Source: Phycisphaera mikurensis NBRC 102666
GTDB taxonomy: Bacteria > Planctomycetota > Phycisphaerae > Phycisphaerales > Phycisphaeraceae
Assembly: GCF_000284115.1 (NCBI RefSeq)
Contig: NC_017080.1
Location: forward strand, 1,530,001-1,562,000
Length of the DNA: 32,000 nucleotides
Reading direction: 5' to 3'
Translations under genes and position numbers: made by a program
The notes under the pieces: generated by a model
The model's input: only the letters and a program-made list of their open reading frames with translations
Databases searched by the model: none
Told to the model about the DNA's origin: nothing
In this document: positions 6,956 through 24,440 of the stretch, piece after piece
How positions within the stretch are numbered: position 1 is the first letter of the stretch
Layout of the letters: each line of letters begins with the position of its first letter

Positions 6956-6969
6956 AAATTACATAATCT
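6956..6969. promoter_or_regulatory. AT-rich island with back-to-back -10-like hexamers (bidirectional promoter candidate)
   Basis: AAAATTACATAATCTT is the only AT-rich stretch in the 54-bp gap between the divergent amidase and dacB genes. Plus-strand TAATCT (6964-6969) ends 6 nt before the dacB ATG. Minus-strand TAATTT (6961-6956) lies ~35 nt before the amidase ATG. Confidence 0.45.
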
Positions 6970-6975
6970 TCCCGG

Positions 6976-8454
6976 ATGATCCGCCTCGCCGCCGCTCTTG
7001 CCGCTCTGGTCGCCGGGAACGCGTCGGGCGAGCTGCAGCGGGAGGTCCGGGAGCTGATCGCGTCCGCCGCCCTCGGCGACGCGGTGGCGGGGGTGGTCGT
7101 CGCGGAGCTGACGCCCGGGGGATCCGAGGTGCGGGTCGACCTCAACGGCGACCTCGCCCTGGGCCCCGCGTCGAACATGAAGCTGGTGACCACGGCGGCG
7201 GCGCTGGACCTGCTCGGCGAGGGCTTCGCCTTCGAGACGACGCTCTCGCTGCTGCCGGCGGGAGACCGCGCACCCTCGCTGCTCGTGCGGGGCTCCGGTG
7301 ACCCGGGCTTCGGCGATCCGCCGCTGCTCGAGGCCGCCGGCGAGACGCCGGCGGGCGTGGTCGCCCGCTGGGTGGAGGCGGTGCGGGCGACGGGCCGGAC
7401 CCGCTTCGCGACGCTGCGCATGGACGACGCGATCTTCGACGCGCAGCGGGTGCACCCGGACTGGCCGGCGGACCAGCAGGCGTACTGGTACTGCGCGGAG
7501 GTGGCGGGGATCAACTTCAACGACAACTGCATCGACGTGCGGCGCGAGCCGGGGCCGGAGCCGGGGGCTCCGGCGGTGCTGCACTTCTTTCCTTCGTTCC
7601 CGGGCCTGGCGGCGCAGGCGACGAACGAGACGGTCACCGGCGAGTCCGACACGTTCGACTTCTCCCGCCCCGCCGATCGCAACGCGTTCAGCTTCACCGG
7701 CGTCGTGGACGGGCCCGGCCTCGACTACGCGGCCGTTCACGACCCCGCGCTGTTCTTCGGCCGGCACCTCGCCCACGAGCTGGCGGAGGCGGGCGTCGGG
7801 GTGGGCGAGGTGGTGCGGGGCGGCGCCCCCGCGGGTGTCGTGCCCGAGAGCCTCGGCGTGGTGAGGACGACGCTGGCCGGCGTGCTCGACCGGACCAACC
7901 GCAACTCGCAGAACCTCTTCGCCGAGGCGCTGCTCAAGCGGATGGGCCGCGAGGCGGCCGGGGAGCCGGGCTCCTTCGCCAACGGCTCGGCGGCGGTGCG
8001 GTCCTACCTCGCCCGGGTGCTCCCGGAGGCGGACCTCTCCGGGGTGGTGGTGGCCGACGGCTCGGGGCTGGCGCGGACGAACCGGCTGACCGCGCGGCTG
8101 CTGGTGGGGCTGCTCGACCGCGTCACGCGGCTGCCGCCGGCGGAGGCGCGGACCTACCGGGAGTCGCTCGCGGAGCTGGGCCGGAGCGGGACGCTGCGCC
8201 ACCGCGGCGAGGGTGTGCGGACGGCCCGGGTGTTCGCGAAGACGGGCACGATCTCGGGCGTCTCGGCGCTCTCGGGCTACCTGGTGACGCCGGCGACGGA
8301 AGAGGCGGCGGAGCGGGTCCACGCGTTCTCAATGCTGTTCAACGGATTCGCCCCGCCGGTGAGCACCCGGGACGTGCGGCGGGTGCAGGACGAGGTGCTG
8401 GCGCTGCTGGACCGCCGCCTGGCCCCGGCGGCGACGCCGGCGGAGTCGCCGTGA
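6976..8454 (+). CDS. dacB: D-alanyl-D-alanine carboxypeptidase/endopeptidase (PBP4, peptidase S13)
   Basis: SxxK is present in GPASNMKLVTTAAAL and KTG in VFAKTGTISGVSALSGY. DGSGLARTNRLT, NRNSQNLFAEALLK and the N-terminal signal are typical of the PBP4 family. Confidence 0.85.
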   Translation: MIRLAAALAALVAGNASGELQREVRELIASAALGDAVAGVVVAELTPGGSEVRVDLNGDLALGPASNMKLVTTAAALDLLGEGFAFETTLSLLPAGDRAPSLLVRGSGDPGFGDPPLLEAAGETPAGVVARWVEAVRATGRTRFATLRMDDAIFDAQRVHPDWPADQQAYWYCAEVAGINFNDNCIDVRREPGPEPGAPAVLHFFPSFPGLAAQATNETVTGESDTFDFSRPADRNAFSFTGVVDGPGLDYAAVHDPALFFGRHLAHELAEAGVGVGEVVRGGAPAGVVPESLGVVRTTLAGVLDRTNRNSQNLFAEALLKRMGREAAGEPGSFANGSAAVRSYLARVLPEADLSGVVVADGSGLARTNRLTARLLVGLLDRVTRLPPAEARTYRESLAELGRSGTLRHRGEGVRTARVFAKTGTISGVSALSGYLVTPATEEAAERVHAFSMLFNGFAPPVSTRDVRRVQDEVLALLDRRLAPAATPAESP

Positions 8455-9572
8455 GGCGGCGTGCGCTGCTCGGCCGCGCGGCGGCGTTGGCGGCCGCCGC
8501 GACGCTGCCCCCCGGCTGCCGGACCGCGACGCTGCGCGGCGGTCCGCCGGTGCCGCGTGGCCTGCACCCCGCCCCGTCGCTGGACGAGCCGGTGTTCCTG
8601 GGCAGCCGGGTGGGGCTGCGGCCGTGGCGGGCCGGCGGCTTCCGGGTCGAGGCGGACCGCCGCGGCACCAAGCCGCTGGTGCACAACTACGGGCACGGCG
8701 GGGCGGGCTGGACGCTGGCCTGGGGGTCGGCGGTGGAGGCGGCGGACCTGCTGGGCACGCCGCGCGCCGTGACGGTGCTGGGCGCGGGCATCGTGGGGCT
8801 GACCACGGCGGCCGTGCTGGCCGAGCGTGGCTTCCGCGTCGCGGTGGCGGCGGCCGAACGCGGCACCGGGGCGACGGCCTCCGCGGCGGCGGGGGCGCAG
8901 TTCGCGCCGGCGGGGGTGGTGCCGCCGGCGGGGCCCGCGGGGGCGGCCCGGCTCGGGCGGATGCTGCTCGAGGGGCACCGGCGCTTCACGCGGACGCTGC
9001 CGTCGCTGGCGGGCGCGGTGCTGCCGCGGGTGAACTACAGCACGCGTCCGCCGGAGCGGATCGCGCTGGGCCGGCTGCCGGTTTCGATCAGCCGCGCCCG
9101 GCCGGTGAGCCCGATGCCGATCCGGCGGCGGGGCGGGCCGCTGGACGGCTGGGCCTACGACACGCTGTGCATCGAGCCGCCGGCTTACCTCCACGGGCTG
9201 CGCGGCCACCTGCAGGGGCAGGGCGTCCGCTTCGAGCACCGGCGGGTGCGGGGGCGGCTGGACCTCGGCGAGATCCCCGGCGAGGCGGTGGTGCTGTGCC
9301 TGGGCGTTGGCGCGCGCGAGGCCGCCGGGGACCCCGCCGTGGTCCCGATCCGCGGGCAGATCGAGTGCCTGGCCCCGCCGCCCGGCGGCGGGCTGCGGTA
9401 CATGCTCAGCGATCGCGGCTACGCCTTCGGCCGGCGCGACTGCACGGTGCTCGGCGGGACGTACGACCGGGGCGACGAGGGGCTGGCGTTCCGCGCGGCG
9501 GACCGGGCGGCGACGCTGGCGAAGGCGCGCCGCTTCTTCGGCACGCCCGACGCCGCCTCGCTGCCGCGCTGA
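8451..9572 (+). CDS. FAD-dependent D-amino-acid-oxidase-like protein, circularly permuted, with a Tat-like signal
   Basis: The GTG at 8451 overlaps the dacB stop (GTGA). MRRRALLGRAAALAAAATLPPGC looks like a twin-arginine signal. The DAAO C-terminal signature VGLRPWR...LVHNYGHGGAGWTLAWGSA comes before the N-terminal Rossmann motif VTVLGAGIVGLTTA. Later DAAO-like blocks are VVPIRGQIECL and CTVLGGTYD. Confidence 0.8.
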   Translation: MRRRALLGRAAALAAAATLPPGCRTATLRGGPPVPRGLHPAPSLDEPVFLGSRVGLRPWRAGGFRVEADRRGTKPLVHNYGHGGAGWTLAWGSAVEAADLLGTPRAVTVLGAGIVGLTTAAVLAERGFRVAVAAAERGTGATASAAAGAQFAPAGVVPPAGPAGAARLGRMLLEGHRRFTRTLPSLAGAVLPRVNYSTRPPERIALGRLPVSISRARPVSPMPIRRRGGPLDGWAYDTLCIEPPAYLHGLRGHLQGQGVRFEHRRVRGRLDLGEIPGEAVVLCLGVGAREAAGDPAVVPIRGQIECLAPPPGGGLRYMLSDRGYAFGRRDCTVLGGTYDRGDEGLAFRAADRAATLAKARRFFGTPDAASLPR

Positions 9573-9734
9573 GCCCCGGCCGCGATGAAGCGGCCGGGGT
9601 CCCGGCCCTCGGCGACCGCCGGCGGCGCGGACCGGCCGGCGCCGCTTCCGCGTCATGCCGCGGGCAGCCACGTCGCGGACGTCCGGAGGGCGTGGCTCCG
9701 TGATCCGATGGGATGCTCTAATCTTCTAGAACAG

Positions 9735-11120
9735 ATGATCGGAGCGCAAGATTCGAAACCGGAATCCGGGGACTGGAACTGGGAACGGCAGCCCGCCGCG
9801 GCGACGCTGCTCGCCGGCTGGCTGGAGGCGGCGCAGGCGGCGAACCCGTGGCTCCGCGACTTCGCGGAGCGCCTCCACGCCGAGAGCGGGAACCGCCTGG
9901 CGGACCTCGTCGACCTCTGGTCGCGGCCGGACACGCCCGACGCGCGGCTCGCCATCGAGCGGGCGGGGTACCGCCCGCTGGAAGCCGCCGCCGGCGGCCA
10001 CCTCTTCCACCACCCCCGGGGGATGTTCCCCCGCGTGCTGCTGCACCCGCGCGCGGGCGTCGCCGTGGACCTCCGGGTGGAGAGCTGCGCCGACTTCGGC
10101 TCCGCCCACGGCCTGAGCGCCGCGATCGAGGGCGTCCCGGGCGCGCCGCTGCGGCGGCTGGCGGTCTACACCGCGGGCGGCGTCGCCGTGCGGGCGGCGC
10201 GCCGGCGGGGCAGCCTGGCGGCCGTGATCACCGGGGGCCCCTGCGAGCCGACGCTGACCGACCAGGCCCTCGTGCTCGAGTCCTTCCGCGGCCGGCCCCG
10301 GCGGTTCGCCGACGAGGCGGCCGGCTTCGACGAGCTCGCCGAGCGGGTGGACGCCGCCGTCGCGCGCGTGGGTCGCGACGTCGCGTGCTCGCTGTTCTTC
10401 GCCGCGGAGCGGGATTTCTGGGAGAGGCGGAACGCCGCCGCCCGCTGGCAGGCGAGCCGGCAGGCTGCGCTGGGCATCGGGTGGGCGAACCACGACCACC
10501 ACACCTACCGCTCGTCGCGGGTCCACTTCCACCGCCTGGTCGCGCTCTTCGAGAAGCTCGGCTTCCACTGCCGCGAGCGCTTCTCGCCGGGCGCCGCCGC
10601 CGGCTGGGGGGCACAGGTGATGGAGCAGCCGGTGTGCGGCATCGTCACCTTCAACGACGTCGACCTCTCGCCGGCGGAGCTGCGGACCGACTTCGCCCAC
10701 ACGCCGCTCGGGGAGCGCGACACGCTGGCGACGGTGGGCCTGTGGTGCGGGCTCCACGGCGAGTCCATCCTCCAAGCCGGCATGCACCACCTCGAGTGCA
10801 CCTTCGACTTCGGCGAGCTGCGCGAGCAGATGGCCTCCGGCGGGATCGAGACGATGCGGCCCTTCACCGACTTCGACCACCTCAAGCAGGCCTTCACGCG
10901 CGGCGAGCTCTGGCAGGTGGAGGAGGGGCGGCTGAACCGGCTGGTCGACGCGGGGAGGATCAGCGGGGCCGAGGCGGAGGCCTTCCGCCGCGACGGCGCG
11001 ATCGGCAGCCACCTGGAGAACCTCGAGCGGAACGAGGGTTTCAAGGGCTTCAACCAGCGCGGCGTCACCGAGGTGATCCACGCGACCGACCCGCGGCGCC
11101 AGCCGTCCTCGCCCGCGTAG
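9735..11120 (+). CDS. Conserved hypothetical protein, possibly a VOC/HPPD-like (DUF1338-type) metalloenzyme
   Basis: The long ORF has strong GC3 bias. I prefer the ATG at 9735 because the preceding 60 nt are unusually AT-rich and contain TAATCT and TTCTAGAA; in-frame alternatives are 9585 and 9708. Motifs NHDHHTYRS (H-x-T-x-R), MHHLECTFD and SHLENLERNEGFKGFNQRGV resemble VOC-superfamily metal-ligand motifs. This assignment is weak. Confidence 0.6.
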   Translation: MIGAQDSKPESGDWNWERQPAAATLLAGWLEAAQAANPWLRDFAERLHAESGNRLADLVDLWSRPDTPDARLAIERAGYRPLEAAAGGHLFHHPRGMFPRVLLHPRAGVAVDLRVESCADFGSAHGLSAAIEGVPGAPLRRLAVYTAGGVAVRAARRRGSLAAVITGGPCEPTLTDQALVLESFRGRPRRFADEAAGFDELAERVDAAVARVGRDVACSLFFAAERDFWERRNAAARWQASRQAALGIGWANHDHHTYRSSRVHFHRLVALFEKLGFHCRERFSPGAAAGWGAQVMEQPVCGIVTFNDVDLSPAELRTDFAHTPLGERDTLATVGLWCGLHGESILQAGMHHLECTFDFGELREQMASGGIETMRPFTDFDHLKQAFTRGELWQVEEGRLNRLVDAGRISGAEAEAFRRDGAIGSHLENLERNEGFKGFNQRGVTEVIHATDPRRQPSSPA

Positions 11121-11166
11121 CCCCGGCGGCCGCCGGTCGCCCCTCCGCCGCCCGACCCCGCCCGCC

Positions 11167-12225
11167 ATGCGTCGCCCCGCACCGCTCCCGATCCCGCTCC
11201 TGACCGCCCTCGCCGCCGCCCTGGCGGCCGGGTGCTCCTCCGCTCCGCCGCCGCCGGATCCCGGGCTCACGCGCACGCCCGCGACCGCGAGTGCGCCCGC
11301 GCCCGCCGACGCCGCGACGCTGGCCGAGCGACTCGCGTACGGGTCCCGGACCCGCACGAAGCTGCCGCCGGCGTACCTGCACGAGCGTCTGCGGGAGCGG
11401 GCGGCGACGCCGGCGGTGGACGCGGCCTTCGAGCGCGTCCGCGCGGACGACACGCCGGCCAACCGGTCGGCGCTGCTGCACGCCCTCGAGCGGGGCTTCG
11501 TCCACGCCGAGACGACCTCCTCGCTGGACCTGCTCGGCCCGGAGCTCGGGCAGCGCTTCCGGTCTTTCAACTGGCACGACGACGACTACCCCGGCGGGCC
11601 GGTGGGCCCGAACGAGCACTGGGCCGGGACGCTCGCCGACGCGCTCGACGGCGTCAGCCCCGAGCGGCGGGCGAACCGCTCCGCGGTGGCGGCTCTCCGG
11701 CGGGAGGAGGCGACGGAGCCGATCTGGGAACGCCTGCTCGCGGCTTGGCGGCCGATCCCCGGCGAGGAGGGCCACCGGCTGAACCGGCACGCCGTCGGCC
11801 CGTACCTCGCGATGCGGGAGGCCGCGGCGGCCGACGGCGTCGAGCTGGTGATCGTCTCGGCCCACCGCGACCCCCGGCGTGCCCGGGCCAACGCCGCCAG
11901 GGCCGCGAATCCCTTCGCCGTCGCCAGCTTCTCCTCGCACGCGCTCGGGCTCGCCATCGACCTCGCGCTCCCGATTCCCGGCGGCCCGGCCGGCGATGCG
12001 GCGGCGTTCCCGCTGTCCACCCGGCCGATGGCCCGGGTGGTCGACATGCGGCGGTCGCCGGTGCACAAGTGGATGCACCTGCACGCCAGCGGCTTCGGCT
12101 GGTACCCGTACCAGCACGAGCCCTGGCACTGGGAGTACAACCCGCCGGGCTTCCGGGCGGTGCTTCTTGAGGATCTCGGGGGCGGGCCGTCGCCGCGTGG
12201 AGCGCCACCGGCGTCGCCCGGTTGA
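11167..12225 (+). CDS. Lipoprotein with VanY/peptidase M15B D-Ala-D-Ala carboxypeptidase domain
   Basis: Lipobox LAAGC follows MRRPAPLPIPLLTALAAALAAGC. M15 motifs are VIVSAHRD, SSHALGLAIDL (SxHxxGxAxD) and GFGWYPYQHEPWHWEY. Confidence 0.8.
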   Translation: MRRPAPLPIPLLTALAAALAAGCSSAPPPPDPGLTRTPATASAPAPADAATLAERLAYGSRTRTKLPPAYLHERLRERAATPAVDAAFERVRADDTPANRSALLHALERGFVHAETTSSLDLLGPELGQRFRSFNWHDDDYPGGPVGPNEHWAGTLADALDGVSPERRANRSAVAALRREEATEPIWERLLAAWRPIPGEEGHRLNRHAVGPYLAMREAAAADGVELVIVSAHRDPRRARANAARAANPFAVASFSSHALGLAIDLALPIPGGPAGDAAAFPLSTRPMARVVDMRRSPVHKWMHLHASGFGWYPYQHEPWHWEYNPPGFRAVLLEDLGGGPSPRGAPPASPG

Positions 12226-12246
12226 GCGACCCGGCGGCGTCGCTCA
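12223..12246. terminator. Hairpin spanning both stop codons of convergent genes
   Basis: TGAGCGAC (12223-12230) pairs with GTCGCTCA (12239-12246) across an 8-nt loop. The TGA of the VanY-like gene pairs with the TCA (the TGA on the other strand) of the TIM-barrel gene. There is no T-tract. Confidence 0.35.
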
Positions 12247-13062
12247 CGCGGGGCGCATGAGCGGGCGCAGCTCCGCCGCGCCGGCACGCAGGTCGTCCAC
12301 GCGCGCGTCGCCGGCCTCCCGCTCCAGGATCAGCTCGCCGTCGTAGCCGCCGCCCCGCAGGATCTCGAGGAAGGCCGCCCAGTCGACCGCCCCCTCGCCG
12401 ACGGGCACCTCGGTGCCCCAGGTCCCCGGTTCGGCGGCCGGCACGGCGTCCTTCGCGTGCGCCTGCTTCACCCGCGGCAGCAGCGTCCGCAGCGCCGCGA
12501 GCGGGTCGCCCATGCCGTAGAGGATCATGTTCGCCGGGTCGAAGTTGAGGAAGAGGTTCGGCCGGTCGGCCGCGTCGAGGAAGCGGTCGAGCGTGGCGGC
12601 GTCCTCCTGCCCGGTCTCCAGCAGCAGGTCGAGCCCGCGGTCGGCGAAGAGGTCCGCCACCGCGCCGGTGCGTCGCGTCAGCGGGTGGTCCGCGGCGTCG
12701 GCGGCGTCGTGGGGCAGGAAGCCGGCGTGCAGGCTGACCGAGGGGAGGCCCAGCCCGGCGGCGAGGTCGGCGACGCGGGCGGCGGTGTCGCGGTTGTGCT
12801 CCCAGTGCTCGTCGGGCAGCAGCCCGCCGGTGACGCGGATCGTGTCGAGGGTGCTGTAGTCCTCGCCGCGGGTCTGCATCATCCCCGAGACGAGCTCGAC
12901 GCCCCCCTCGCGGAGGGCGGCGGGGGCGTCGGCCCACGCGGGATCCTCGGCGACGTCGTCCAGCCGCAGCTGGACGCGCGGGATCCCGGTCGCCCGGACC
13001 TTCTCGACGAGGTCGGCGGGGGAGGTCGCCTGGAGGCTCCAGCTGCAGATGGCGAGGCGCAT
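12244..13062 (-). CDS. Sugar phosphate isomerase/epimerase (xylose-isomerase-like TIM barrel)
   Basis: ATG at 13062 gives MRLAICSWSL..., 272 aa. Family-typical blocks are VSLHAGF, LLLETGQE, FLNFDPANMILYG and DGELILERE. The upstream part of the track ORF (to 13560) is rejected. Confidence 0.8.
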   Translation of the reverse strand: MRLAICSWSLQATSPADLVEKVRATGIPRVQLRLDDVAEDPAWADAPAALREGGVELVSGMMQTRGEDYSTLDTIRVTGGLLPDEHWEHNRDTAARVADLAAGLGLPSVSLHAGFLPHDAADAADHPLTRRTGAVADLFADRGLDLLLETGQEDAATLDRFLDAADRPNLFLNFDPANMILYGMGDPLAALRTLLPRVKQAHAKDAVPAAEPGTWGTEVPVGEGAVDWAAFLEILRGGGYDGELILEREAGDARVDDLRAGAAELRPLMRPA

Positions 13063-13068
13063 CGTGCC

Positions 13069-13074
13069 GTTATA
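13069..13074 (-). promoter_or_regulatory. -10-like hexamer TATAAC, 6 nt upstream of the ATG at 13062 (leaderless candidate)
   Basis: The minus strand reads CTTCTATAAC-GGCACG-ATG. Confidence 0.45.
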
Positions 13075-13284
13075 GAAGGTTTCCGCCGGAGGCCCTCGCC
13101 GGGCCGGCTCCGGCCCGGTGGCGTGCTTGTGCCCGGCGGCGACGACGCCGGGCTCCGGCTGCGTGGGGCGCGGCTTCCGCCGCCGGACCCGGCCGTCTCG
13201 GCCACTTCCGCGACAGCCTTTGAACCGGCGAACCCCGCTCTCCACCGGCTCCGCCAGGCGGCCGGAGCGTCCACCTCCCCCGCG

Positions 13285-13290
13285 TACCCT
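13285..13290 (+). promoter_or_regulatory. -10-like hexamer TACCCT, 7 nt upstream of the dnaB GTG (leaderless candidate)
   Basis: The plus strand reads CGCGTACCCT-CCGCCTC-GTG. Confidence 0.4.
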
Positions 13291-13297
13291 CCGCCTC

Positions 13298-14779
13298 GTG
13301 GTCGACTTCGGAAACAGCGAGAGCGGGGGCGGCGGCGACCTCCGGGCGTTCGGCGGGGCGGCCCCGGGGCCGTCGAAGCAGGGCGACGGCTGGAAGGACC
13401 GCAAGAAGAAGCCGCGGACGGTCGACCTCAGCCGCCTGCTGGATCGCCTCCCGCCGCAGGCCATCGAGGCGGAGATGGCGCTCCTGGGCTCGATGATCCT
13501 CGACTGGCGGACCGTCGGCGACGTGGTGCAGGTGCTCGTCGACGCGGAGGTGTTCCACAAGCCCGAGCACCAGTCGATCTACGCCGTGCTCGTCGAGCTC
13601 TACGACAAGCACCAGTCGATCGACATGGTGCAGCTGCATGCCAAGCTGTCCGACCGCGGCGTCCTCGAGCAGGTCGGCGGGCTGGACTACCTCGTCGAGC
13701 TCGGCGAGGCCGTGCCCTCGGCCAGCGGAGCCGTCCGCTACGCGGAGATCGTCCGCGACAAGGCGCTGCTGCGGAAGATGATCCACACGGCGGGCACGAT
13801 CCTCGAGGACTGCCACGGCTGCGACGAGCCGGTGGTGGAGCTGTTCGACAAGATCGAGAGCACCATCTTCGAGATCGCCGAGAAGCGCACGCAGGACGGC
13901 ACGGCCGCGCTGTCGGTCCTGCTGCAGGAGACCTTCGACAAGCTCGAGGCGCAGGACGGCCAGGTCATCACCGGCGTCGAAACCGGCTTCAAAGACCTCG
14001 ACGAGATGACCAACGGCCTCCAGCCCGGCGAGCTGATCATCGTCGCGGCGCGCCCGAGCATGGGCAAGACGGCCTTCGCGCTCAACGTCTCCGAGCACAT
14101 CGGGGCGGTGGCGGGGCGGCCGGTGGGCGTGTTCTCGCTGGAGATGAGCAAGCAGCAGCTGGCCCAGCGGCTGCTGTGCTCGCGGAGCCAGGTCAACTCG
14201 CACCGGCTGCGGCGGAACATGCTCTCGCGGGAGGACTTCTCGAAGCTGAGCCACGCCGTGGGCGAGCTGTCCGAGGCGCCGATCTACATCGACGACACGG
14301 CCGGCCTGACGCTGATGGGCCTGCGGGCGAAGGCTCGGCGGATGAAGCAGCGCTACGGCATCGAGGCGCTGATGGTCGACTACCTGCAGCTGATGAGCAA
14401 CCCCTCGACGAAGGACGGCCGGCAGAACGAGGTGTCCGCGATCTCGCGGGGCGTGAAGGCGCTCGCGCGGGAGCTGGAGTGCCCGATCATCTGCCTGTCG
14501 CAGCTGAACCGGGCGGCGGAGCAGCGCGAGGGGCACCGGCCGCGGATGAGCGACCTGCGCGAGTCCGGCTCCATCGAGCAGGACGCCGACGTCATCATGA
14601 TGCTGCACCGGGAGGACTACTACCACCGTGGCGATCCCGAGCACGTCGACAACAACGAGGCGGAGGTCATCGTCACCAAGCAGCGCAACGGACCGACCGG
14701 CACGGTCAAGCTGATGTTCGACGGCGGGACGACCCGCTTCAAGAACCTGGCGCTCGGCGGCTCGTCGCCGTCGTATTGA
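13298..14779 (+). CDS. dnaB: Replicative DNA helicase DnaB
   Basis: LPPQAIEAEMALLGSMIL is the DnaB N-terminal domain. Walker A is ARPSMGKTAF and Walker B is LMVDYLQLM. SQLNRAAEQREGHRPRMSDLRESGSIEQDADVIMMLHRE is also present. The start was set at the GTG at 13298; the 13118 ATG adds a junk-like Arg/Pro N-terminus. Confidence 0.9.
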   Translation: MVDFGNSESGGGGDLRAFGGAAPGPSKQGDGWKDRKKKPRTVDLSRLLDRLPPQAIEAEMALLGSMILDWRTVGDVVQVLVDAEVFHKPEHQSIYAVLVELYDKHQSIDMVQLHAKLSDRGVLEQVGGLDYLVELGEAVPSASGAVRYAEIVRDKALLRKMIHTAGTILEDCHGCDEPVVELFDKIESTIFEIAEKRTQDGTAALSVLLQETFDKLEAQDGQVITGVETGFKDLDEMTNGLQPGELIIVAARPSMGKTAFALNVSEHIGAVAGRPVGVFSLEMSKQQLAQRLLCSRSQVNSHRLRRNMLSREDFSKLSHAVGELSEAPIYIDDTAGLTLMGLRAKARRMKQRYGIEALMVDYLQLMSNPSTKDGRQNEVSAISRGVKALARELECPIICLSQLNRAAEQREGHRPRMSDLRESGSIEQDADVIMMLHREDYYHRGDPEHVDNNEAEVIVTKQRNGPTGTVKLMFDGGTTRFKNLALGGSSPSY

Positions 14780-14787
14780 GGTTCGCC

Positions 14788-14807: not shown

Positions 14808-15920
14808 TCAAACAACCACCATCGCGTCGCCGAAGGAGTAGAAGCGGTAGGCCTCGCCGATGGCCTCCTCGTACCAGCCGAGCAGGCGGTCGAGCCCGAC
14901 GCCGGGCAGAGCGGCCACCAGCGCGAGCAGCGTCGACCTCGGCAGGTGGAAGTTGGTCAGGAGCAGGTCGGTGTTGCGGAAGGCGAAGCCCGCGTCGGGC
15001 CGGATGAACAGGTCGGTCTCGCCGGCGAGGCCGGCGGTCGGAGCCGGTTCGGGCAGCGGGAAGGGCAGGCTCTCCAGCGTCCGCACGCTCGTCGTGCCGA
15101 TCGCGAGCACGCGGCCGCCGGCGGCGCGGCTGGCGCGGAGGGCGTCGAGCGTCGCGGCGGGAGCGTGCCACCGCTCGGCGTGCATCGGGTGTTCGGCGAG
15201 CTCGTCGGCTCTCACCGGCAGGAAGGTGCCGGGGCCGACCTCCAGCGTGACCGCTTCGGTGCGCACGCCGGCGGCGCGGAGGCCGGCGAGCACGGCCTCG
15301 GTCAGGTGCAGGCCCGCGGTGGGCGCGGCGACGGAGCGTTGCGAAGCGGCGGAGCGGTCGGCGAAAACGGTCTGGTACCGCTCGGCGTCGCCGGGCAGGT
15401 CGGCGGGGCCGCCGGCCCGCTCGCGGGCCCGGAGCAGGTAAGGCGGCAGCGGCGGGAGGCCCACGCGGCGGAGGACCTCCAGCGACGCGTCGATCGGCAT
15501 CGGCTCGCCGGCGAGGTCCCGCGGCCGGAGGCGCCAGCGGCCGCCACCCCGCGGCGAGAGCAGCTCCAGCTCGCAGGCGTCGCCGAGCTGCAGCCGTTCG
15601 CCGATCCGCGGGCGGCCGCCGCTCTTGAGCATCGCGGTCCACAAGCCGGCGTCGTCGTGGCCGAGGTAGAGGCCGGTGACCCGCCCGCCGGTTCCGGCGC
15701 GGGTGGCCTCGAAGCGAGCCGGCAGCACCGCCGTTCGGTTCACCACCATGAGGTCGCCATCGCCGACCAGGCCCAGCCCCGGCAGGTCCGACACGCGGCG
15801 GTGGTGGACGCTCCCGGTGGCCCGGTCGCAGACCATCAGCCGCGCGCTGTCGCGGGGCTCCGCCGCGGTGGTCGCGATCAGCCGCTCGGGGAGGTGGAAG
15901 TCGAGTTCGTCGGTGCGCAC
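14808..15920 (-). CDS. queA: S-adenosylmethionine:tRNA ribosyltransferase-isomerase
   Basis: QueA blocks are present: LDFHLPERLIA, ERYQTVFA, VAAPTAGLHLT, IGTTSVRTLES, LLTNFHLPRSTLLALV and YRFYSFGDAMVV. The start is the GTG at 15920. Confidence 0.9.
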   Translation of the reverse strand: MRTDELDFHLPERLIATTAAEPRDSARLMVCDRATGSVHHRRVSDLPGLGLVGDGDLMVVNRTAVLPARFEATRAGTGGRVTGLYLGHDDAGLWTAMLKSGGRPRIGERLQLGDACELELLSPRGGGRWRLRPRDLAGEPMPIDASLEVLRRVGLPPLPPYLLRARERAGGPADLPGDAERYQTVFADRSAASQRSVAAPTAGLHLTEAVLAGLRAAGVRTEAVTLEVGPGTFLPVRADELAEHPMHAERWHAPAATLDALRASRAAGGRVLAIGTTSVRTLESLPFPLPEPAPTAGLAGETDLFIRPDAGFAFRNTDLLLTNFHLPRSTLLALVAALPGVGLDRLLGWYEEAIGEAYRFYSFGDAMVVV

Positions 15921-15926
15921 GCGGGC

Positions 15927-15932
15927 AAGCTA
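15927..15932 (-). promoter_or_regulatory. -10-like hexamer TAGCTT, 6 nt upstream of the queA GTG (leaderless candidate)
   Basis: The minus strand reads CCGTAGCTT-GCCCGC-GTG. Confidence 0.45.
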
Positions 15933-16056
15933 CGGCGGCCTCCGCCGCGGGCGCCCGCCGATCTACGATCGGCCACGCACGCCGCCCGCACCCCCTGGAG
16001 CCTGTCCCTTGGGTTTCTCTCGATCGAAGAGCCGACCCCGCGAGACGCGGGAATCG

Positions 16057-16245
16057 ATGATCCGCGACACGAGCCGCTTCCTCACCTGGGCGATGGCCGC
16101 CGACCGCGGCCTCGCCCGGATCCCCACCCGGCGGTCGGACGATGGCGGGTTCTCGGCGCTGATGCGGCGGCCGGCGGCCCGGCTGATGGCCTCGCACTGG
16201 TGGCACCGCGCGGTGGATCGAGCGGGCGAGGCGTTTGGCCGATGA
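16057..16245 (+). CDS. Possible small protein (62 aa), hypothetical
   Basis: The ORF (ATG to TGA) lies in the 407-bp queA-divergent gap. Its product is MIRDTSRFLTWAMAADRGLARIPTRRSDDGGFSALMRRPAARLMASHWWHRAVDRAGEAFGR. By eye, 57 of 62 codons end in G or C, matching the coding bias of neighbouring genes. I recognise no homology and no clear RBS. Confidence 0.35.
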   Translation: MIRDTSRFLTWAMAADRGLARIPTRRSDDGGFSALMRRPAARLMASHWWHRAVDRAGEAFGR

Positions 16246-16327: not shown

Positions 16328-16999
16328 ATGAACGACGCCGCCACCGCACCCCTCCGCGCCCGCATCAGCAAGGGCTACCGCATCCGGCTGGCGCTCATCG
16401 GGCTCGGCCTGACCGCCTTCGGCTGCTGGGCGCTCTACGACGGCTTCATCGAGTACCCGCGGCGGGCGGAGGTGTACGCCCAGCTCCAGCAGATGCAGGA
16501 GGACCACGTCGACTGGGCCACCCGCTGGCAGGCGTACGCCGCCGAGCGTGGCCTCGAGACCAACCCCAACAAGGTCAAGCCGCTGGAGGACAAGGACATT
16601 TGGACGCAGTACGTCATGGCGGCGATCTGCCTGCCGATCGGCGGCTTCTTCCTCCTGAACTTCGTGCGGGCCAGCGGCCGCAAGGTCGAGGCCGACGCGC
16701 TGGGCATCCGCGGGCGCGAGGGCTCGGCGACCTGGGACGAGGTCCACGGCCTCGACGACGCCCGCTGGCGGACCAAGGGCATCTCCCGCGTGCTCTTCCG
16801 CGACGCCGGCGGCGCCGAGGGCAAGATCGTGCTCGACGACTGGAAGTACGAGCGGGAGCCCACCGTCGCCATCCACGCGCGGGTGGCGGAGAAGCTCGGC
16901 CTGGAGGACGGCGCCGCGGTGCCCGCGGAGGGCGCGGAGACGCCGCCTCCGGCCGAGGCGGCTGAAGCGGCTGAGCCCGACAAGCCCAGCGGGGCTTGA
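16328..16999 (+). CDS. Hypothetical membrane protein (two predicted TM helices plus a soluble C-terminal domain)
   Basis: ATG at 16328 gives 223 aa. The predicted TM segments are IRLALIGLGLTAFGCWALY and YVMAAICLPIGGFFLLNFV. The tail is acidic and Ala/Pro-rich. GC3 bias is strong. Confidence 0.7.
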   Translation: MNDAATAPLRARISKGYRIRLALIGLGLTAFGCWALYDGFIEYPRRAEVYAQLQQMQEDHVDWATRWQAYAAERGLETNPNKVKPLEDKDIWTQYVMAAICLPIGGFFLLNFVRASGRKVEADALGIRGREGSATWDEVHGLDDARWRTKGISRVLFRDAGGAEGKIVLDDWKYEREPTVAIHARVAEKLGLEDGAAVPAEGAETPPPAEAAEAAEPDKPSGA

Positions 17000-17013
17000 G
17001 GCGGCGGCGGCTC

Positions 17014-17034: not shown

Positions 17035-17081
17035 CCGAATCCGCCGGTTCCGATCGCTCGCAAGCCGGGGAGGCTGCCCGC

Positions 17082-17732
17082 TTAGCCCTTGCGTCCGAAG
17101 TCGGCGGGGATCTCGCCCCAAGCCCTGGTGTCCCACACGCGGATGTCCGGTTTCGCGCCGGAGGGCTGGCTCTTCAGCCAGGCCAGCGCGTCCTCCAGGC
17201 GAGCGGCGACCCGCGATCCGGCCTTGCCGTCGCGGAGGAAGGCCGAGTTCAGCGCCCGCTTCCGCACCCAAGCCCGGGCCGTCAAGGAGTCGCTGTAGAG
17301 CGTCCGCTCCTCTCCGCCGGGCCGCCGCAGCGCGTCGACGATCGCGAGGAACTCGCCGAAGTTGGCGTTCGCTCCCGTGAAGGGTCCCTCCGCGAAGAGC
17401 ACCTCGCCGGTCTGGAGGTCCACGCCCCGGTACTCCATCACCCACCGCGTGGTGTCGCACGCGGCGTCGACGCAGGTCGCCGGGCCCGTCGGCCGGCCCC
17501 CGGGCGCCGCGGACCGCGACGCGAGGCCGGCGGATTCGGCCGCAGTCCGCGGCGCCGCGCCGCCCGCGTCGGGGTCGCCGGCGGCGAAGGCGGCCTCCGC
17601 TTGAGCCCGCGTCGCGTAGCCGTTCTGCCGTGCGCCCGGGAAGCCGCGGGTGGCCGCGAGCACGGGCGCCCAGGCGTCGAAGACGCCGGTCTCGCGGCCC
17701 GACCACACCACGTACGCCTTCTTCTTCGCCAT
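17082..17732 (-). CDS. rnhA: Ribonuclease H with N-terminal hybrid-binding (Cauli_VI/HBD) domain
   Basis: The N-terminus KKKAYVVWSGRETGVFDAWAPVLAATRGFPGARQNGYATRAQAEAAF matches the RNase H1 HBD pattern. A low-complexity linker follows. The RNase H-like core is CVDAACD...GEFLAIVDAL...LYSDSLTARAWV. Confidence 0.75.
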   Translation of the reverse strand: MAKKKAYVVWSGRETGVFDAWAPVLAATRGFPGARQNGYATRAQAEAAFAAGDPDAGGAAPRTAAESAGLASRSAAPGGRPTGPATCVDAACDTTRWVMEYRGVDLQTGEVLFAEGPFTGANANFGEFLAIVDALRRPGGEERTLYSDSLTARAWVRKRALNSAFLRDGKAGSRVAARLEDALAWLKSQPSGAKPDIRVWDTRAWGEIPADFGRKG

Positions 17733-17738
17733 GCGGCG

Positions 17739-17744
17739 AACCTA
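17739..17744 (-). promoter_or_regulatory. -10-like hexamer TAGGTT, 6 nt upstream of the RNase H ATG (leaderless candidate)
   Basis: The minus strand reads GTTCTAGGTT-CGCCGC-ATG. Confidence 0.45.
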
Positions 17745-17811
17745 GAACATCGGAGCCAATCGCGGAGCCACCGCCCGCGGCCCGGGGGCGAGAGCGCCCG
17801 GGAACGCGTCG

Positions 17812-18945: not shown

Positions 18946-20555
18946 GGCGCCGCCGCGGGCTCGGTCTCGCCCCCGCCGGCGTTCGCGTCCGCCGGCTCCG
19001 CCGCCTCTTCGAGCGCCGCTCTCGCCTCGGGCGAGACCGTCTCGACGGGCGCCAAGCCGGCGGAGCCGATCGTCTCGGGCTGCAGGCCCTCCAGCTCCTC
19101 GTTCACCCGGGCGAGCTGCTCCTGCAGCTGCTCCTTCGCCCGCACGAGATTCGCGCGCTCCTGCTCGGCGATCACCGCGTCGGCGTTCTTCTGCCCGACC
19201 TGCGGGAACTCGCCGGTCTCCAGCTTGCCCTCGATGGCGGTCAACGCGGCGGCGAGCTGCGGGTCGGAGAGGTTCTCGAGGATCCACGCCGGATCGACCT
19301 CGCCGGCCGCCGCGGCGGCGGCCAGCGTCTCCTGCACCCCGCGGTCGCGGCGGGCCTCGAGCATCGCGACGATCTCGTCGCGGGTCATCGGCACGTAGTC
19401 GCCGTCGGTGGGGTCCACGCCCCACTCCTTGTCGATGTCCTCGTCCTCGCCGAGGATCGGCCGCCGGTGGATGTTCCGGCCCGAGGGCAAGTAGTAGTAC
19501 GCGTTGGTGATCTTGAGAGCGCCGAGGTTCTTGTCGAGGACCTTGAGCTGCTGCACGCTGCCCTTGCCGAACGTCCGCGTGCCCACCAGCAGCGAGCGGC
19601 CGTTCTCGGAGAGCGCTCCCGCGACGATCTCCGCCGCCGAGGCCGAGGCCTCGTTCGCCAGCACCACCACCGCGACGTCCTCGGGCACGAGGGTCTCGGG
19701 CGTCGAGGTGAAGGTGCTCTCCCGCACCGCCCGCCCCCGCACCGACACGATCGTCTGGCCCCCGTCGAGGAACATGTCCGAGATCGCCTCGGCCGCGTCG
19801 AGCAGGCCGCCGGGGTTGAACCGCATGTCGAAGACGAGCCCCTTCATGCCGGCGTCCACGAGCGACCGGAGCGTGTCGCGCACCTCGCCAACGGAGTTCT
19901 CGTTGAACTGCGTGAGACGGAGGTAGGCGATCTTGGCCTCGGGATCGATCCAGTGGCGTTGGATCCCCTCGGCCCCGGACGCGAAGCCCTTGACGCTGTC
20001 GACCTTGATCCGGGCGCGGGTGATCGTGATCTCCTCGGTCTCGCCGCCCTCGTGCCGCACGACGATCGTGACGTCGGTGCCTTCCTCCCCGGTCAGCTTC
20101 TTGACCGCGTCGATGATGGACATCTCGAAGGTGTCCTCCCCGTCGATCGTCATCACGATGTCGCCGGCCTGCACGCCCTGGTTCCAGGCGGGCGAGTCCT
20201 CCAGCGGGCTGACGATCTGCAGCCGCTTCTCGGTCGCGTCGATCTGCACCTCCGCCCCGATGCCGGAGAACGAGCCGCTCACGTGCTTGTTGAAGTCCTC
20301 GAACTCCTCGGCCGTCATGTAGGCGGTGTAGGGGTCGTTGAGCGCCTCGATCATGCCCTTGACGCCCCCCTCGATGAGGTCGGTGCTGTCGGGCTCCTCC
20401 ACGTACTCCCGCAGCAGGTCGTGCCGCAGCGTCACGAAGAGGTCGATCTCGTCGAAGGTGTCTGCCGAGCGTGCCCAGGTCGGGTGCAGCGCGACCGTCA
20501 GCACGAGCGCCACGGCGGCGAGGGAGAGGTTGGTGGCGAGCTTCGAGCGCTTCAT
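18942..20555 (-). CDS. ctpA: Carboxyl-terminal processing protease (peptidase S41, PDZ domain) with a long acidic/coiled C-terminal extension
   Basis: S41 blocks are GIGAEV, the PDZ segment SPLEDSPAWNQGVQAGDIVMTIDGE, DMRFNPGGLLDAA, ASASAAEIVAGAL and GTRTFGKGSVQ. I prefer the ATG at 20555 (MKRSKLATNLSLAAVALVL signal, with TACGCT 6 nt upstream); the alternative is 20606. Confidence 0.85.
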   Translation of the reverse strand: MKRSKLATNLSLAAVALVLTVALHPTWARSADTFDEIDLFVTLRHDLLREYVEEPDSTDLIEGGVKGMIEALNDPYTAYMTAEEFEDFNKHVSGSFSGIGAEVQIDATEKRLQIVSPLEDSPAWNQGVQAGDIVMTIDGEDTFEMSIIDAVKKLTGEEGTDVTIVVRHEGGETEEITITRARIKVDSVKGFASGAEGIQRHWIDPEAKIAYLRLTQFNENSVGEVRDTLRSLVDAGMKGLVFDMRFNPGGLLDAAEAISDMFLDGGQTIVSVRGRAVRESTFTSTPETLVPEDVAVVVLANEASASAAEIVAGALSENGRSLLVGTRTFGKGSVQQLKVLDKNLGALKITNAYYYLPSGRNIHRRPILGEDEDIDKEWGVDPTDGDYVPMTRDEIVAMLEARRDRGVQETLAAAAAAGEVDPAWILENLSDPQLAAALTAIEGKLETGEFPQVGQKNADAVIAEQERANLVRAKEQLQEQLARVNEELEGLQPETIGSAGLAPVETVSPEARAALEEAAEPADANAGGGETEPAAAP

Positions 20556-20561
20556 GGCCCG

Positions 20562-20567
20562 AGCGTA
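20562..20567 (-). promoter_or_regulatory. -10-like hexamer TACGCT, 6 nt upstream of the ctpA ATG at 20555 (leaderless candidate)
   Basis: The minus strand reads CTCCGTACGCT-CGGGCC-ATG. Confidence 0.4.
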
Positions 20568-20641
20568 CGGAGCCGGCTTCCCGCGGGTTTGCCCGGTAAA
20601 CGTCATACTGGCGGCGCACCGGCGGCCCGCGACGCTTCTCG

Positions 20642-21454: not shown

Positions 21455-21475
21455 GCCGAATCCGCGAGGCTGCGC

Positions 21476-21481
21476 TAGCGT
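21476..21481 (+). promoter_or_regulatory. -10-like hexamer TAGCGT, 5 nt upstream of the cupin ATG at 21487 (leaderless candidate)
   Basis: The plus strand reads GCGCTAGCGT-CGCGG-ATG. Confidence 0.35.
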
Positions 21482-21486
21482 CGCGG

Positions 21487-21792
21487 ATGGAACACAGCAC
21501 CCACCGAAACGACGCCCCGACCGGCGACCGCGGCCAGAAGCAGCTCATCGAGGGCGACGGCGCTCTGCTCCGCCTCTGGCAGGACGCGCAGCCGGGACAG
21601 CACAGCGAGATGCACACGACGCCGTACGAGACGCTCGGCTACGTGATCTCCGGCCGCGGCATCTGCCACCTCGGCGACGAGGCGATCCCGCTCGGCCCCG
21701 GCACCGCCTGGCGGGTGCCCAAAGACACGCCGCACAGGTACGAGATCACCGAGGCGCTGACGGCGGTGGAGTCGATCACGCCGAGGCCCTGA
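21487..21792 (+). CDS. Cupin domain protein
   Basis: The cupin_2-like core is HSEMHTTPYETLGYVISGRGICHLGDEAIPLGPGTAWRVPKDTPHRY. I prefer the ATG at 21487; the alternative GTG at 21451 overlaps the LuxR stop. Confidence 0.7.
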   Translation: MEHSTHRNDAPTGDRGQKQLIEGDGALLRLWQDAQPGQHSEMHTTPYETLGYVISGRGICHLGDEAIPLGPGTAWRVPKDTPHRYEITEALTAVESITPRP

Positions 21793-21884
21793 GGCGCGGC
21801 CACCCCCCACGCTCCGGGCCGGAGCCGGGGCCGAAGGATCGGCGCTCCCGCCCCTGGGGCGCCGGCAGGCCGGCAGACGCTCGA

Positions 21885-21890
21885 TAGGCT
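21885..21890 (+). promoter_or_regulatory. -10-like hexamer TAGGCT, 6 nt upstream of the trkH GTG (leaderless candidate)
   Basis: The plus strand reads CTCGATAGGCT-CCGCGC-GTG. Confidence 0.45.
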
Positions 21891-21896
21891 CCGCGC

Positions 21897-23462
21897 GTGA
21901 ACTTCCGACGCGTGAGCCGGGCACTCGGCCTCCTGCTGCTGATGCTCTCCGCGTGCATGGCGATCGCGCTGGTCGCGGAGCTCTGCGGCTTCGGCACGCC
22001 GGATCCACGCTGGGAGCCGGTGGTGGAGTCCTTCGGCATCGCGCTGGCGATGGGGGCGCTGCTCGGCGCGGCCTTCATCTTCGGCGGCCGCGAGCCCGGC
22101 GCCCCGCTGCTGGACTCGCCCAACCGGCGGGAGGCCTTGCTCCTGGTCGGGACCGGCTGGCTGCTCGCGGCATCGGTCGCCGCGATCCCGTTCTACGCGT
22201 GGTCCTACCTGCAGCCGGCGGTGGGGGCCGAGCACCCCTTCGCCCGGTACGCGGCGTGCTGGTTCGAGGCGATGAGCGGCCTCACCGCGACGGGCGGGAC
22301 CGTCCTGGGCGAGCAGGGCAACACGATCGAGGCGCTGCCCTCGGGCCTGCTGCTCTGGCGCTCGGGTGTGCAGTGGCTCGGAGGCCTGGGCATCGTGGTG
22401 CTCTTCGTCGCGGTGCTGCCGCTGCTGGGCGCCGGGGCGAAGTCGATGCTCCGCTTCGAAACCAGCGGCCCGGTGAAGAAGGGCGTGCAGCCGCGCATCT
22501 CCGAGACCGCCCGGGAGCTGTGGCTGATCTACCTCGGCCTCACCTGTGCGTGCGCGGCGTTGCTCGCGACCGTCGGCGGGATGAGCCTCTTCGACGCCGT
22601 CAATCACACCTTCACCGCCGTCGCCACCGCCGGCTTCTCCACGCGCAACGCCAGCGCCGGCGCGTACGACAGCGTCGCGGTCGACACGATTCTGCTGTGC
22701 TTCATGGTGATCGGCGGCGTGAACTTCGCCCTCTACCACCAGCTGCTCAAGGGCCGGCTGGTGAGCGTCTGGCGAGACGCCGAGTTCCGCACCTACGCGT
22801 CGCTGCTGCTCATCGGCACCGCCATCGTCGCCTGCTGCATCGTCGGCACCGAAGTCACGCTGCTCACCGGCGAGGTCCGCGTGCCCGGCGTTGTCGACAG
22901 CCTCCGCTACGCCGGCTTCCAGGTGGCGTCGATCATGACGACGACCGGGCTCGCCACCGCGGACTTCGACCAGTGGGGTTTCGTGCCCAAAGCCGTGCTC
23001 TTCTCGCTCATGTTCGTCGGCGGCTGCGCGGGCTCCACCTCCGGCGGGCTCAAGGTCATCCGCGTGATGGTGATGTGCCGGATCTTCGCGGGCGACCTGG
23101 AAAAGGTTTACCGGCCGACGGTCATCCGCTCGGTGCGCATCGGCGGCGTGACGGTCACCGACGACCTCCGCCGCAGCGTGACGACCTTCGTGGTGACGAT
23201 GTTCGCGCTGGCGGGGCTCGGTGCCCTGTGCGTGAAGCTCATCCAGGGCGACGAGCTCGACGTGGTCTCCGCGGCGATGGCGTCGGTCGCGTGCCTCTTC
23301 AACATCGGGCCGGGCTTCCGGCAGGTGGGCCCGACGCAGAGCTTCGCCTTCTTCTCCGACGCCTCGCTGCTGATCCTCGGCTTGCTGATGGCCATGGGCC
23401 GGCTGGAGGTCTTCGCGCTGCTCGTGCTGGTCAGCCCCCGCTTCTGGCGCGACTCCTCGTAG
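21897..23462 (+). CDS. trkH: TrkH/KtrB-family potassium uptake protein
   Basis: The 521-aa product is polytopic. Repeated selectivity-filter-like segments are MSGLTATGGTV, TAVATAGFST, IMTTTGLATADF and GCAGSTSGGLKVIR, plus WLGGLGIVVLFVAVLP. Confidence 0.85.
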   Translation: MNFRRVSRALGLLLLMLSACMAIALVAELCGFGTPDPRWEPVVESFGIALAMGALLGAAFIFGGREPGAPLLDSPNRREALLLVGTGWLLAASVAAIPFYAWSYLQPAVGAEHPFARYAACWFEAMSGLTATGGTVLGEQGNTIEALPSGLLLWRSGVQWLGGLGIVVLFVAVLPLLGAGAKSMLRFETSGPVKKGVQPRISETARELWLIYLGLTCACAALLATVGGMSLFDAVNHTFTAVATAGFSTRNASAGAYDSVAVDTILLCFMVIGGVNFALYHQLLKGRLVSVWRDAEFRTYASLLLIGTAIVACCIVGTEVTLLTGEVRVPGVVDSLRYAGFQVASIMTTTGLATADFDQWGFVPKAVLFSLMFVGGCAGSTSGGLKVIRVMVMCRIFAGDLEKVYRPTVIRSVRIGGVTVTDDLRRSVTTFVVTMFALAGLGALCVKLIQGDELDVVSAAMASVACLFNIGPGFRQVGPTQSFAFFSDASLLILGLLMAMGRLEVFALLVLVSPRFWRDSS

Positions 23463-23500
23463 ACGCTGCGTGGCGGCCGGTTCGCGACCGGGGGCCCGCG

Positions 23501-23520
23501 CCGCGGACCGTCGCGGTTTT
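23501..23520 (+). terminator. Short hairpin plus T-tract after trkH; shares the family X 13-mer
   Basis: CCGCG-GACCGT-CGCGG is followed by TTTT, 39 nt after the trkH stop. CCGCGGACCGTCG (23501-23513) is identical to the arm of the 26941 repeat. Confidence 0.4.
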
Positions 23521-23549
23521 CGCCTCCAGAGCCCCGCGATCCGCGGCGC

Positions 23550-23555
23550 TACCGT
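23550..23555 (+). promoter_or_regulatory. -10-like hexamer TACCGT, 6 nt upstream of the DUF427 GTG (leaderless candidate)
   Basis: The plus strand reads GCGCTACCGT-CCCGCC-GTG. Confidence 0.4.
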
Positions 23556-23561
23556 CCCGCC

Positions 23562-24059
23562 GTGCAGCGCCCGACACCCCAACCGCCCGGGCCGGGGCAG
23601 GAATCGGCTTGGGACTACCCGCGCCCGCCGCGGCTGGAGCCCGTCGGCGAGCGGCTGCGGATCGAGTTCAACGGCGTGGCCATCGCCGACACCACCGCCG
23701 GCCACCGCGTGCTGGAGACGTCGCACCCGCCGGTCTACTACTTCCCGCCGCGGGACCTCCTGCCCGCGTCGATCGTCGACGCCGGCGGCGGCAGCTTCTG
23801 CGAGTGGAAGGGCCGGGCGTGCTACCACGACGTGGTCGTCGGCGACCGCCGGCTCGAACGCGTCGCGTGGAGCTACCCCAACCCGACGGACCGTTTCGCG
23901 GCCATCGCCGGGCACCTCGCCTTCTACTGCGGGCCGATGGACGGCTGCTACGTCGGGAGCGAGCGGGCGACGCCGCAGCCCGGCGGCTTCTACGGCGGCT
24001 GGGTGACGTCGAGGGTCGTCGGGCCCTTCAAAGGCGAGCCCGGCACGGAGGGCTGGTGA
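23562..24059 (+). CDS. DUF427 domain protein
   Basis: ESAWDYPRPPRLEPV, SHPPVYYFPPRDL, CEWKGRACYHDV and FYGGWVT are typical DUF427 blocks. Confidence 0.75.
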   Translation: MQRPTPQPPGPGQESAWDYPRPPRLEPVGERLRIEFNGVAIADTTAGHRVLETSHPPVYYFPPRDLLPASIVDAGGGSFCEWKGRACYHDVVVGDRRLERVAWSYPNPTDRFAAIAGHLAFYCGPMDGCYVGSERATPQPGGFYGGWVTSRVVGPFKGEPGTEGW

Positions 24060-24123
24060 GGGCGCGGGCGACGCCGTCGGCCCGAGCCGGGCCCGCGGCC
24101 CGCGGCCCGGCCCGCGGCGCGGC

Positions 24124-24429
24124 TTAGATCTCGTGGAACGCGGTCTCAAGCAGCCGCGTCTTCTTCCGCGTCGCCCGCCGCCGGCGCGGGTCGCGGCCGA
24201 CCCGCATCGTCACGAGCTCGCAGCGCTGGCAGCGCCAGGCCGGCAGCCGGTTCGCCTTGAGGATCGCCGAGGTGCCCGGGATGGCCTCCGCGAAATCGGA
24301 AGGGCCTTCCGCGTTCCGCAACCACAGCAGCCCCTCGCTCACCGCCACGAAGCCGGCTTGCTGCCACCCGTCGCAGCTGGGGCACCGCAGCGCCTCCTCC
24401 TCGTCCGCGGGTGCATGGGGATCGCTCAC
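24124..24429 (-). CDS. Small zinc-ribbon-like hypothetical protein (101 aa)
   Basis: GTG at 24429 gives VSDPHAPADEEEALRCPSCDGW...WRCQRCELV (two CxxC pairs) with a basic tail. The ORF upstream of 24429 would overlap the GS-like gene and is rejected. Confidence 0.55.
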   Translation of the reverse strand: MSDPHAPADEEEALRCPSCDGWQQAGFVAVSEGLLWLRNAEGPSDFAEAIPGTSAILKANRLPAWRCQRCELVTMRVGRDPRRRRATRKKTRLLETAFHEI

Positions 24430-24434
24430 GGGCG

Positions 24435-24440
24435 AGGGTA
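24435..24440 (-). promoter_or_regulatory. -10-like hexamer TACCCT, 5 nt upstream of the GTG at 24429 (leaderless candidate)
   Basis: The minus strand reads GGACCTACCCT-CGCCC-GTG. Confidence 0.35.

Follow-up and report, generated by a model that had tools for sequence, protein, structure and literature searches.

Hexamers before ten gene starts

The 32-kb stretch of Phycisphaera mikurensis DNA analysed here (the window; 73% G+C) contains ten genes in which a hexamer resembling a -10 promoter element lies 5 to 7 nucleotides (nt) upstream of the start codon, an arrangement that would make their mRNAs leaderless. A preliminary description had read these ten combinations of hexamer, spacer and start codon from the DNA, and all of them were recovered in place when the sequence was reread. 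It had assigned the pattern TAnnnT to all ten. This held for nine, while the gene of a TIM-barrel protein has TATAAC, which ends in C.

On the forward strand, dacB (Peptidase_S13; 6964..6978) has TAATCT 6 nt before the ATG at 6976, with the TAA of the hexamer being an in-frame stop that closes the open reading frame (ORF). On the same strand are dnaB (13285..13300) with TACCCT 7 nt before the GTG at 13298, a cupin gene (21476..21489) with TAGCGT 5 nt before the ATG at 21487, trkH (21885..21899) with TAGGCT 6 nt before the GTG at 21897 and a DUF427 gene (23550..23564) with TACCGT 6 nt before the GTG at 23562. On the reverse strand, the TATAAC of the TIM-barrel gene (AP_endonuc_2; 13060..13074) lies 6 nt before the ATG at 13062. 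The same distance separates TAGCTT from the GTG of queA at 15920 (15918..15932), TAGGTT from the ATG of an RNase H-like gene at 17732 (17730..17744) and TACGCT from the ATG of ctpA (Peptidase_S41) at 20555 (20553..20567). A zinc-ribbon gene (DUF6487; 24427..24440) has TACCCT 5 nt before the GTG at 24429. Thus the spacer measures 6 nt in seven genes, 5 nt in the cupin and zinc-ribbon genes and 7 nt in dnaB. Five of the ten genes start with GTG, and the first base of the start codon is always a purine.

An extended -10 element (TGn) was not seen at any of the ten hexamers, and a promoter scan of the E. coli type, which needs a -35 box, returned no site in 20 kb. Rfam gave no match in the window. 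As is typical of Planctomycetota, prepilin-type N-methyl and PEP-CTERM proteins are among those encoded in the window. By queA, its relatives belong to Phycisphaerae throughout, and a metagenome-assembled genome of the Phycisphaeraceae ranks first with 61% identity.

Positional excess and conservation

The preliminary description had guessed that TAnnnT should occur at well under 1% of sites. The measured frequency was far below this guess, at about 0.04% of positions, with 14 copies on the forward and 11 on the reverse strand of the window. Nine of these 25 copies sit 5 to 7 nt upstream of the claimed gene starts. One further copy, separated by 7 nt from a GTG inside a gene (1997), looks like chance. 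About 17 of the 25 fall in intergenic DNA, which makes up roughly 10% of the window.

To avoid a circular choice of start codons, the positional excess was determined with a motif-blind procedure, i.e. a gene caller based on codon log-odds that ignores upstream sequence. Every in-frame ATG, GTG or TTG near a coding-potential boundary was taken as a candidate start and TAnnnT was tabulated by spacing. Two callers that used G+C content at third codon positions only had been rejected because they picked antisense shadow ORFs. For the 29 genes and 56 candidate starts of the window TAnnnT matched 2, 6 and 1 times at 5, 6 and 7 nt, respectively. These nine matches compare with 0.49 expected (Poisson P = 2.8e-9); the other 43 offsets together had seven matches. 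In a 47-kb stretch comprising the window and 15 kb of flanks (contig JACHEL010000003.1, 360 kb, of assembly GCA_014207395.1) 44 genes yielded 10 matches at 5 to 8 nt, where 0.8 were expected (P = 2e-8). As a positive control, 100 kb of Deinococcus radiodurans MP1 with 75 genes gave 10 matches at 5 to 8 nt with a peak at 6 nt, compared to 3.1 expected (P = 0.001). The negative control, 100 kb of Cupriavidus necator pHG1 with 83 genes, had two matches in this range, where 5.1 were expected, and no peak. The tabulation of offsets that the preliminary description had proposed, carried out on the window and the 47-kb contig stretch alongside the control genomes, came out in favor of an excess at its spacing of 5 to 7 nt. 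We concluded that the hexamers are genuinely associated with gene starts and that chance does not account for this. On the 47-kb stretch 23% of the genes carry the signal, corresponding to roughly a third of the transcription units (about 10 to 11 of about 30). Estimated by the excess over background, the share is about 15% of genes in loci labelled Phycisphaeraceae and about 6% in those labelled Phycisphaerales and Tepidisphaerales.

Conservation was examined in three syntenic loci of close relatives (L134, L135 and L136), whose proteins are 72 to 90% identical to those of the window and whose intergenic DNA has diverged. The comparison covers the RNase H, ctpA, queA, dnaB, TIM-barrel, cupin and trkH genes. 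For ctpA the hexamer TACGCT is identical in all three relatives. The TAGCTT of queA recurs in two and is TACGTT in the third, while TAGGTT of the RNase H gene is replaced by TAGCTT, TAGATT and TACCTT; the spacer of these three genes is 6 nt throughout. dnaB has 7 nt in all genomes, with TACGAT in two relatives and TACCCT, as in the window, in the other. The TATAAC of the TIM-barrel gene is kept in all three at 6 to 7 nt even though it departs from TAnnnT. The cupin signal is partly conserved, with TATGAC at 6 nt in two relatives and TACGGT at 5 nt in one. In the alignments of RNase H, ctpA and queA the columns of T1, A2 and T6 were invariant in nine of nine cases compared to 14 of the 81 other columns between -30 and -1 (P = 1e-6). 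Hence T1, A2, T6 and the distance to the start are kept across relatives, in contrast to the spacer and the sequence upstream of the hexamer, which have diverged.

Beyond the close relatives we followed queA through 66 loci of Phycisphaerae. Because synteny around queA is almost absent there, the comparison was limited to queA and one neighbouring gene. A scan of 4 to 9 nt before the conserved ATG of the N-terminal MRTD found TAnnnT in 29 of the 66 loci, in 28 of them at 6 to 9 nt and in one at 4 nt. The carriers belong mainly to the Phycisphaerales and have the form gcgTAccAT at 7 to 8 nt. In many Phycisphaerales loci (L005, L006, L010, L032, L033, L040, L042, L057 and others) an inverted repeat GTTGC-N-GCAAC(A) lies about 15 to 35 nt upstream of queA, immediately upstream of the -10 hexamer; it may be a binding site for a regulator. 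The queA of the window has a palindrome CCGATC-TAC-GATCGG at 15958-15972 instead. A gene for a phosphate-selective porin (Porin_O_P), which is absent from the window, shows a comparable arrangement in two of the close relatives, with TACGTT 7 to 8 nt before its ATG (L134, 2441; L135, 1026).

Proposed leaderless transcripts and alternative explanations

We favor the view, with a probability of roughly 0.8, that the hexamers (TAnnnT and the one TATAAC) are -10-only promoters of the housekeeping sigma factor that give rise to leaderless mRNAs. They would act as -10 elements without a recognisable -35 box. With the last base of the hexamer 5 to 7 nt before ATG or GTG, transcription should start on the purine of the start codon or within 1 to 2 nt of it. 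The spacing of 6 nt would correspond to a canonical start on the first base of the codon, and 5 and 7 nt would be within the normal play of start sites. The mRNA would be leaderless or have 1 to 2 extra nt, with neither a 5' untranslated region nor a Shine-Dalgarno sequence, and by analogy with mycobacteria and Deinococcus the AUG or GUG at the 5' terminus would be bound directly by ribosomes. Promoters consisting of a -10 element only are typical of mycobacteria, too. The other transcription units would use leadered promoters, often with a Shine-Dalgarno core.

The preliminary description had stated that these starts lack Shine-Dalgarno sequences and had suggested to look for their depletion. 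Indeed, a GGAG, GAGG or AGGA core between -17 and -4 was present at none of 11 candidate starts compared to 10 of 30 other genes of the contig; among random positions 14% have such a core. The energy of the duplex with the anti-Shine-Dalgarno sequence was dropped as a discriminator because in this genome 40% of random 20-mers have values of at most -5 kcal/mol, and core motifs were used instead.

The hexamers could also be genuine promoters of genes some of which have their start codon further downstream than claimed; ordinary short leaders would then result. This is the best of the alternatives, and we consider it improbable. It can point to the length of protein preceding the first Pfam domain, which amounts to 52 residues in dnaB, 32 in the cupin and 33 in the DUF427 gene. 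On the other hand, the Pfam domain begins at residue 4 in QueA and at residue 5 in the RNase H-like protein (Cauli_VI), and no claimed start is more than about 50 nt away from the coding-potential boundary. The N-termini VVDFGNS of dnaB, MK(R/S)KLATNLSL of ctpA and M(S/E)xSTHK of the cupin are kept as protein in the relatives, and an exact spacing of 5 to 7 nt to an in-frame start would be unexpected if translation began elsewhere. The ORFs of dacB, queA, RNase H and trkH offer no start earlier than the claimed codon. Metagenomic homologues of trkH, distant ones with at most 48% identity, align from residue 1; in these trkH comes after trkA, which makes them uninformative about conservation of the promoter. 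Domain positions and conserved N-termini support the claimed start codons, from which translation would begin at a 5'-terminal AUG or GUG. The proposal that the hexamer helps in choosing start codons was upheld for dnaB (13298), ctpA (20555) and the cupin (21487).

Still less likely, the motif could serve the translation of leadered mRNAs as a non-Shine-Dalgarno signal, e.g. an A/U-containing site for the ribosome or for ribosomal protein S1 as in the Bacteroidetes-type 'group B' of GeneMarkS-2. Nakagawa 2017 (PMC5397173), who reported an ambiguous 'leaderless and/or S1' bias, could not separate leaderless from S1 signals in the one planctomycete genome of that study. In genomes with this kind of ribosome-binding site, however, the motif precedes first and internal genes of operons alike. 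Among 755 genes taken from the 66 loci of Phycisphaerae, those that are first in their unit had 78 matches at 5 to 8 nt compared to 39 expected (P = 3e-8), while operon-internal genes had 12 compared to 8.9 expected, which is not significant. The limitation of the peak to first-in-unit genes fits a promoter rather than a ribosome-binding motif. In addition, the motif is missing from all overlapping or coupled genes of the window (8451, 1578, 27888 and 29087), and the same type of hexamer occurs 34 to 60 nt upstream of leadered genes, two of which also have a -35 box.

Finally, at a spacing of 6 nt a TAA or TAG within the hexamer acts as an in-frame stop, so a rule of 'first start after stop' could place TA-hexamers near starts by chance or by ORF definition, and four hexamers at 6 nt (dacB, queA, RNase H and trkH) do open with such a codon; yet this artefact is hardly credible, as the other in-frame offsets (0, 3, 9, 12 and so on) had no match in the window compared to six at 6 nt and the high-GC Cupriavidus control showed no peak with the same pipeline, which together rule it out, and as the TAC hexamers of ctpA, DUF427, dnaB and the zinc-ribbon gene share the spacing and T6, which is not needed for a stop codon, is conserved in the relatives.

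Several points weigh against leaderless transcription from the ten hexamers. No -35 box is recognisable at any of them, the best candidates having no more than three of six matches to TTGACA. The conservation comparison covers seven of the ten genes. In trkH the start-adjacent hexamer is found in the genome of the window and not in the close relatives, where TAGCCT is located 47 nt upstream of a TTG or GTG start; in L134 (5518) and L135 (4562) a G-rich stretch precedes this codon, so trkH probably has a leader there. The difference suggests that among close relatives the gene has switched between a leadered and a leaderless form. The flanks of the window add just one case among 18 genes, a lower density which implies that the window is a dense patch. 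A co-directional gene lies directly upstream of the cupin gene (32 nt past the GerE stop), the RNase H gene (79 nt) and the zinc-ribbon gene (71 nt), and transcription may also reach these three by read-through. The gene calls of the public assembly match all ten starts, but would not be independent evidence if the gene caller models such promoters. Moreover, we infer the position of the transcription start and the mode of ribosome loading from sequence statistics and conservation. Taken together, the leaderless mRNAs proposed in the preliminary description are supported by the spacing, the conservation in relatives, the restriction to first-in-unit genes, the lack of Shine-Dalgarno cores and the Deinococcus and Cupriavidus controls.

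The signature itself has been published and is modelled by gene finders, and the analysis reveals no new mechanism. Zheng et al. 2011 (PMC3160421) described TA-led genes, in which TANNNT precedes the start by about 12 nt and, in high-GC genomes, has uninformative middle bases, and in group C of GeneMarkS-2 (PMC6028130) a Pribnow box is found 6 to 8 nt from the start in 25 to 50% of operons. According to these accounts the Phycisphaera signal resembles both in the TAnnnT consensus, the position of the first T about 12 nt upstream, the restriction to first genes of operons, the coexistence with Shine-Dalgarno-led genes and the share of operons. The difference is one of lineage, as the phylum list of Zheng et al. 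does not contain Planctomycetes and the text on GeneMarkS-2 names Actinobacteria and Deinococcus-Thermus as the main taxa of group C. For Mycobacterium (Cortes 2013, Shell 2015) and Deinococcus deserti (de Groot 2014), as cited in PMC6028130 and PMC5397173, leaderless transcripts are described with mapped 5' ends and reporter or proteomic evidence. By these citations the systems have in common -10-only promoters in GC-rich DNA, 5'-terminal AUG and GUG starts and leaderless transcripts amounting to about a quarter to a half of the total, but the evidence there is experimental, whereas ours consists of sequence statistics and conservation.

Within the phylum, ProTISA (PMC2238952) recorded an atypical signal only and no TA-like signal in its one planctomycete genome. 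That genome shares the low use of Shine-Dalgarno sequences; it differs from Phycisphaerae, and this genus especially, in which a TA-like signal is present. A survey of 2024 lists Phycisphaerae only for a Shine-Dalgarno use of 46%. Our literature search found no mapping of transcription starts in Planctomycetes and no report of leaderless transcripts for this lineage, in agreement with the preliminary description, which knew of none; an implicit assignment to group C in the species tables of GeneMarkS-2 is possible. On balance we lean towards the view that Phycisphaera-type Planctomycetota are an unrecognised leaderless-rich lineage of the PVC (Planctomycetes-Verrucomicrobia-Chlamydiae) superphylum, with about a third of the units driven by -10-only promoters, half of the starts being GUG, genes such as trkH switching between relatives and a signal that is weaker but persists across Phycisphaerales and Tepidisphaerales. 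This would be a known type of signal newly seen in a lineage without a report that we could find, and the scientific surprise is modest. The taxa with frequent leaderless initiation would thereby gain a PVC lineage, which bears on the question of an ancestral trait versus repeated origin in GC-rich genomes. In genomes of 73% G+C, where the true start is often preceded by a long upstream extension of the ORF, the hexamer provides a practical rule for placing starts, and expression constructs for Phycisphaerae could use -10-only, leaderless designs.

Leadered promoters and neighbouring genes

Hexamers of the same type are located 10 to 60 nt upstream of the genes starting at 4720, 4477, 6921, 9735 and 16328, where they would give leadered transcripts. 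For two of them the preliminary description had reported TTGC-type -35 boxes at a spacing of 16 nt, and the sequences are as described. TTGCAC-16-TAGCAT (4635..4662, forward strand) precedes the gene at 4720, which would have a leader of about 50 nt with a GAGGA Shine-Dalgarno core, and TTGCGT-16-TAGAAT (4573-4546, reverse strand) precedes the prepilin-type gene at 4477. The hexamer upstream of the gene at 16328 is conserved in the relatives. Between queA and this gene an ORF of 62 amino acids (16057-16245, forward strand) of no obvious family has 79 to 89% amino acid identity in the three close relatives, where it is called as a gene.

For the hypothetical protein of 461 amino acids the start of the longest ORF at 9585 is probably wrong; the public call, the coding potential and a TAATCT 10 nt upstream favor the ATG at 9735 (9719..9737, forward strand), and the mRNA may have a very short leader of 3 to 4 nt.

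The spacer of 54 bp between the divergent amidase gene and dacB (6922-6975) has back-to-back -10 hexamers, TAATTT on the reverse and TAATCT on the forward strand, in a single A/T island AAAATTACATAATCT. A G-run GGGGGGGTGGGGTGGGGAG adjoins this island, and the amidase mRNA would have a C-rich leader of about 28 nt without a Shine-Dalgarno sequence. In L134 (17895-19735) the TIM-barrel and amidase genes are adjacent, co-directional and overlapping, and L135 has the same order with a fragmented call of the TIM-barrel gene. In the window a 5.3-kb block of four genes on the opposite strand (6976-12225; dacB, a DAO oxidase, the 461-residue hypothetical protein and VanY) separates the two. A block of cell-wall genes seems to have been inserted or deleted here. 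The dnaB genes of L134 (14603-17158), L135 (14216-16768) and L136 (10706-13357) encode proteins of 850 to 883 amino acids with an intein (Hom_end/LAGLIDADG between two DnaB_C halves), while the dnaB of the window encodes 493 amino acids and has no intein.

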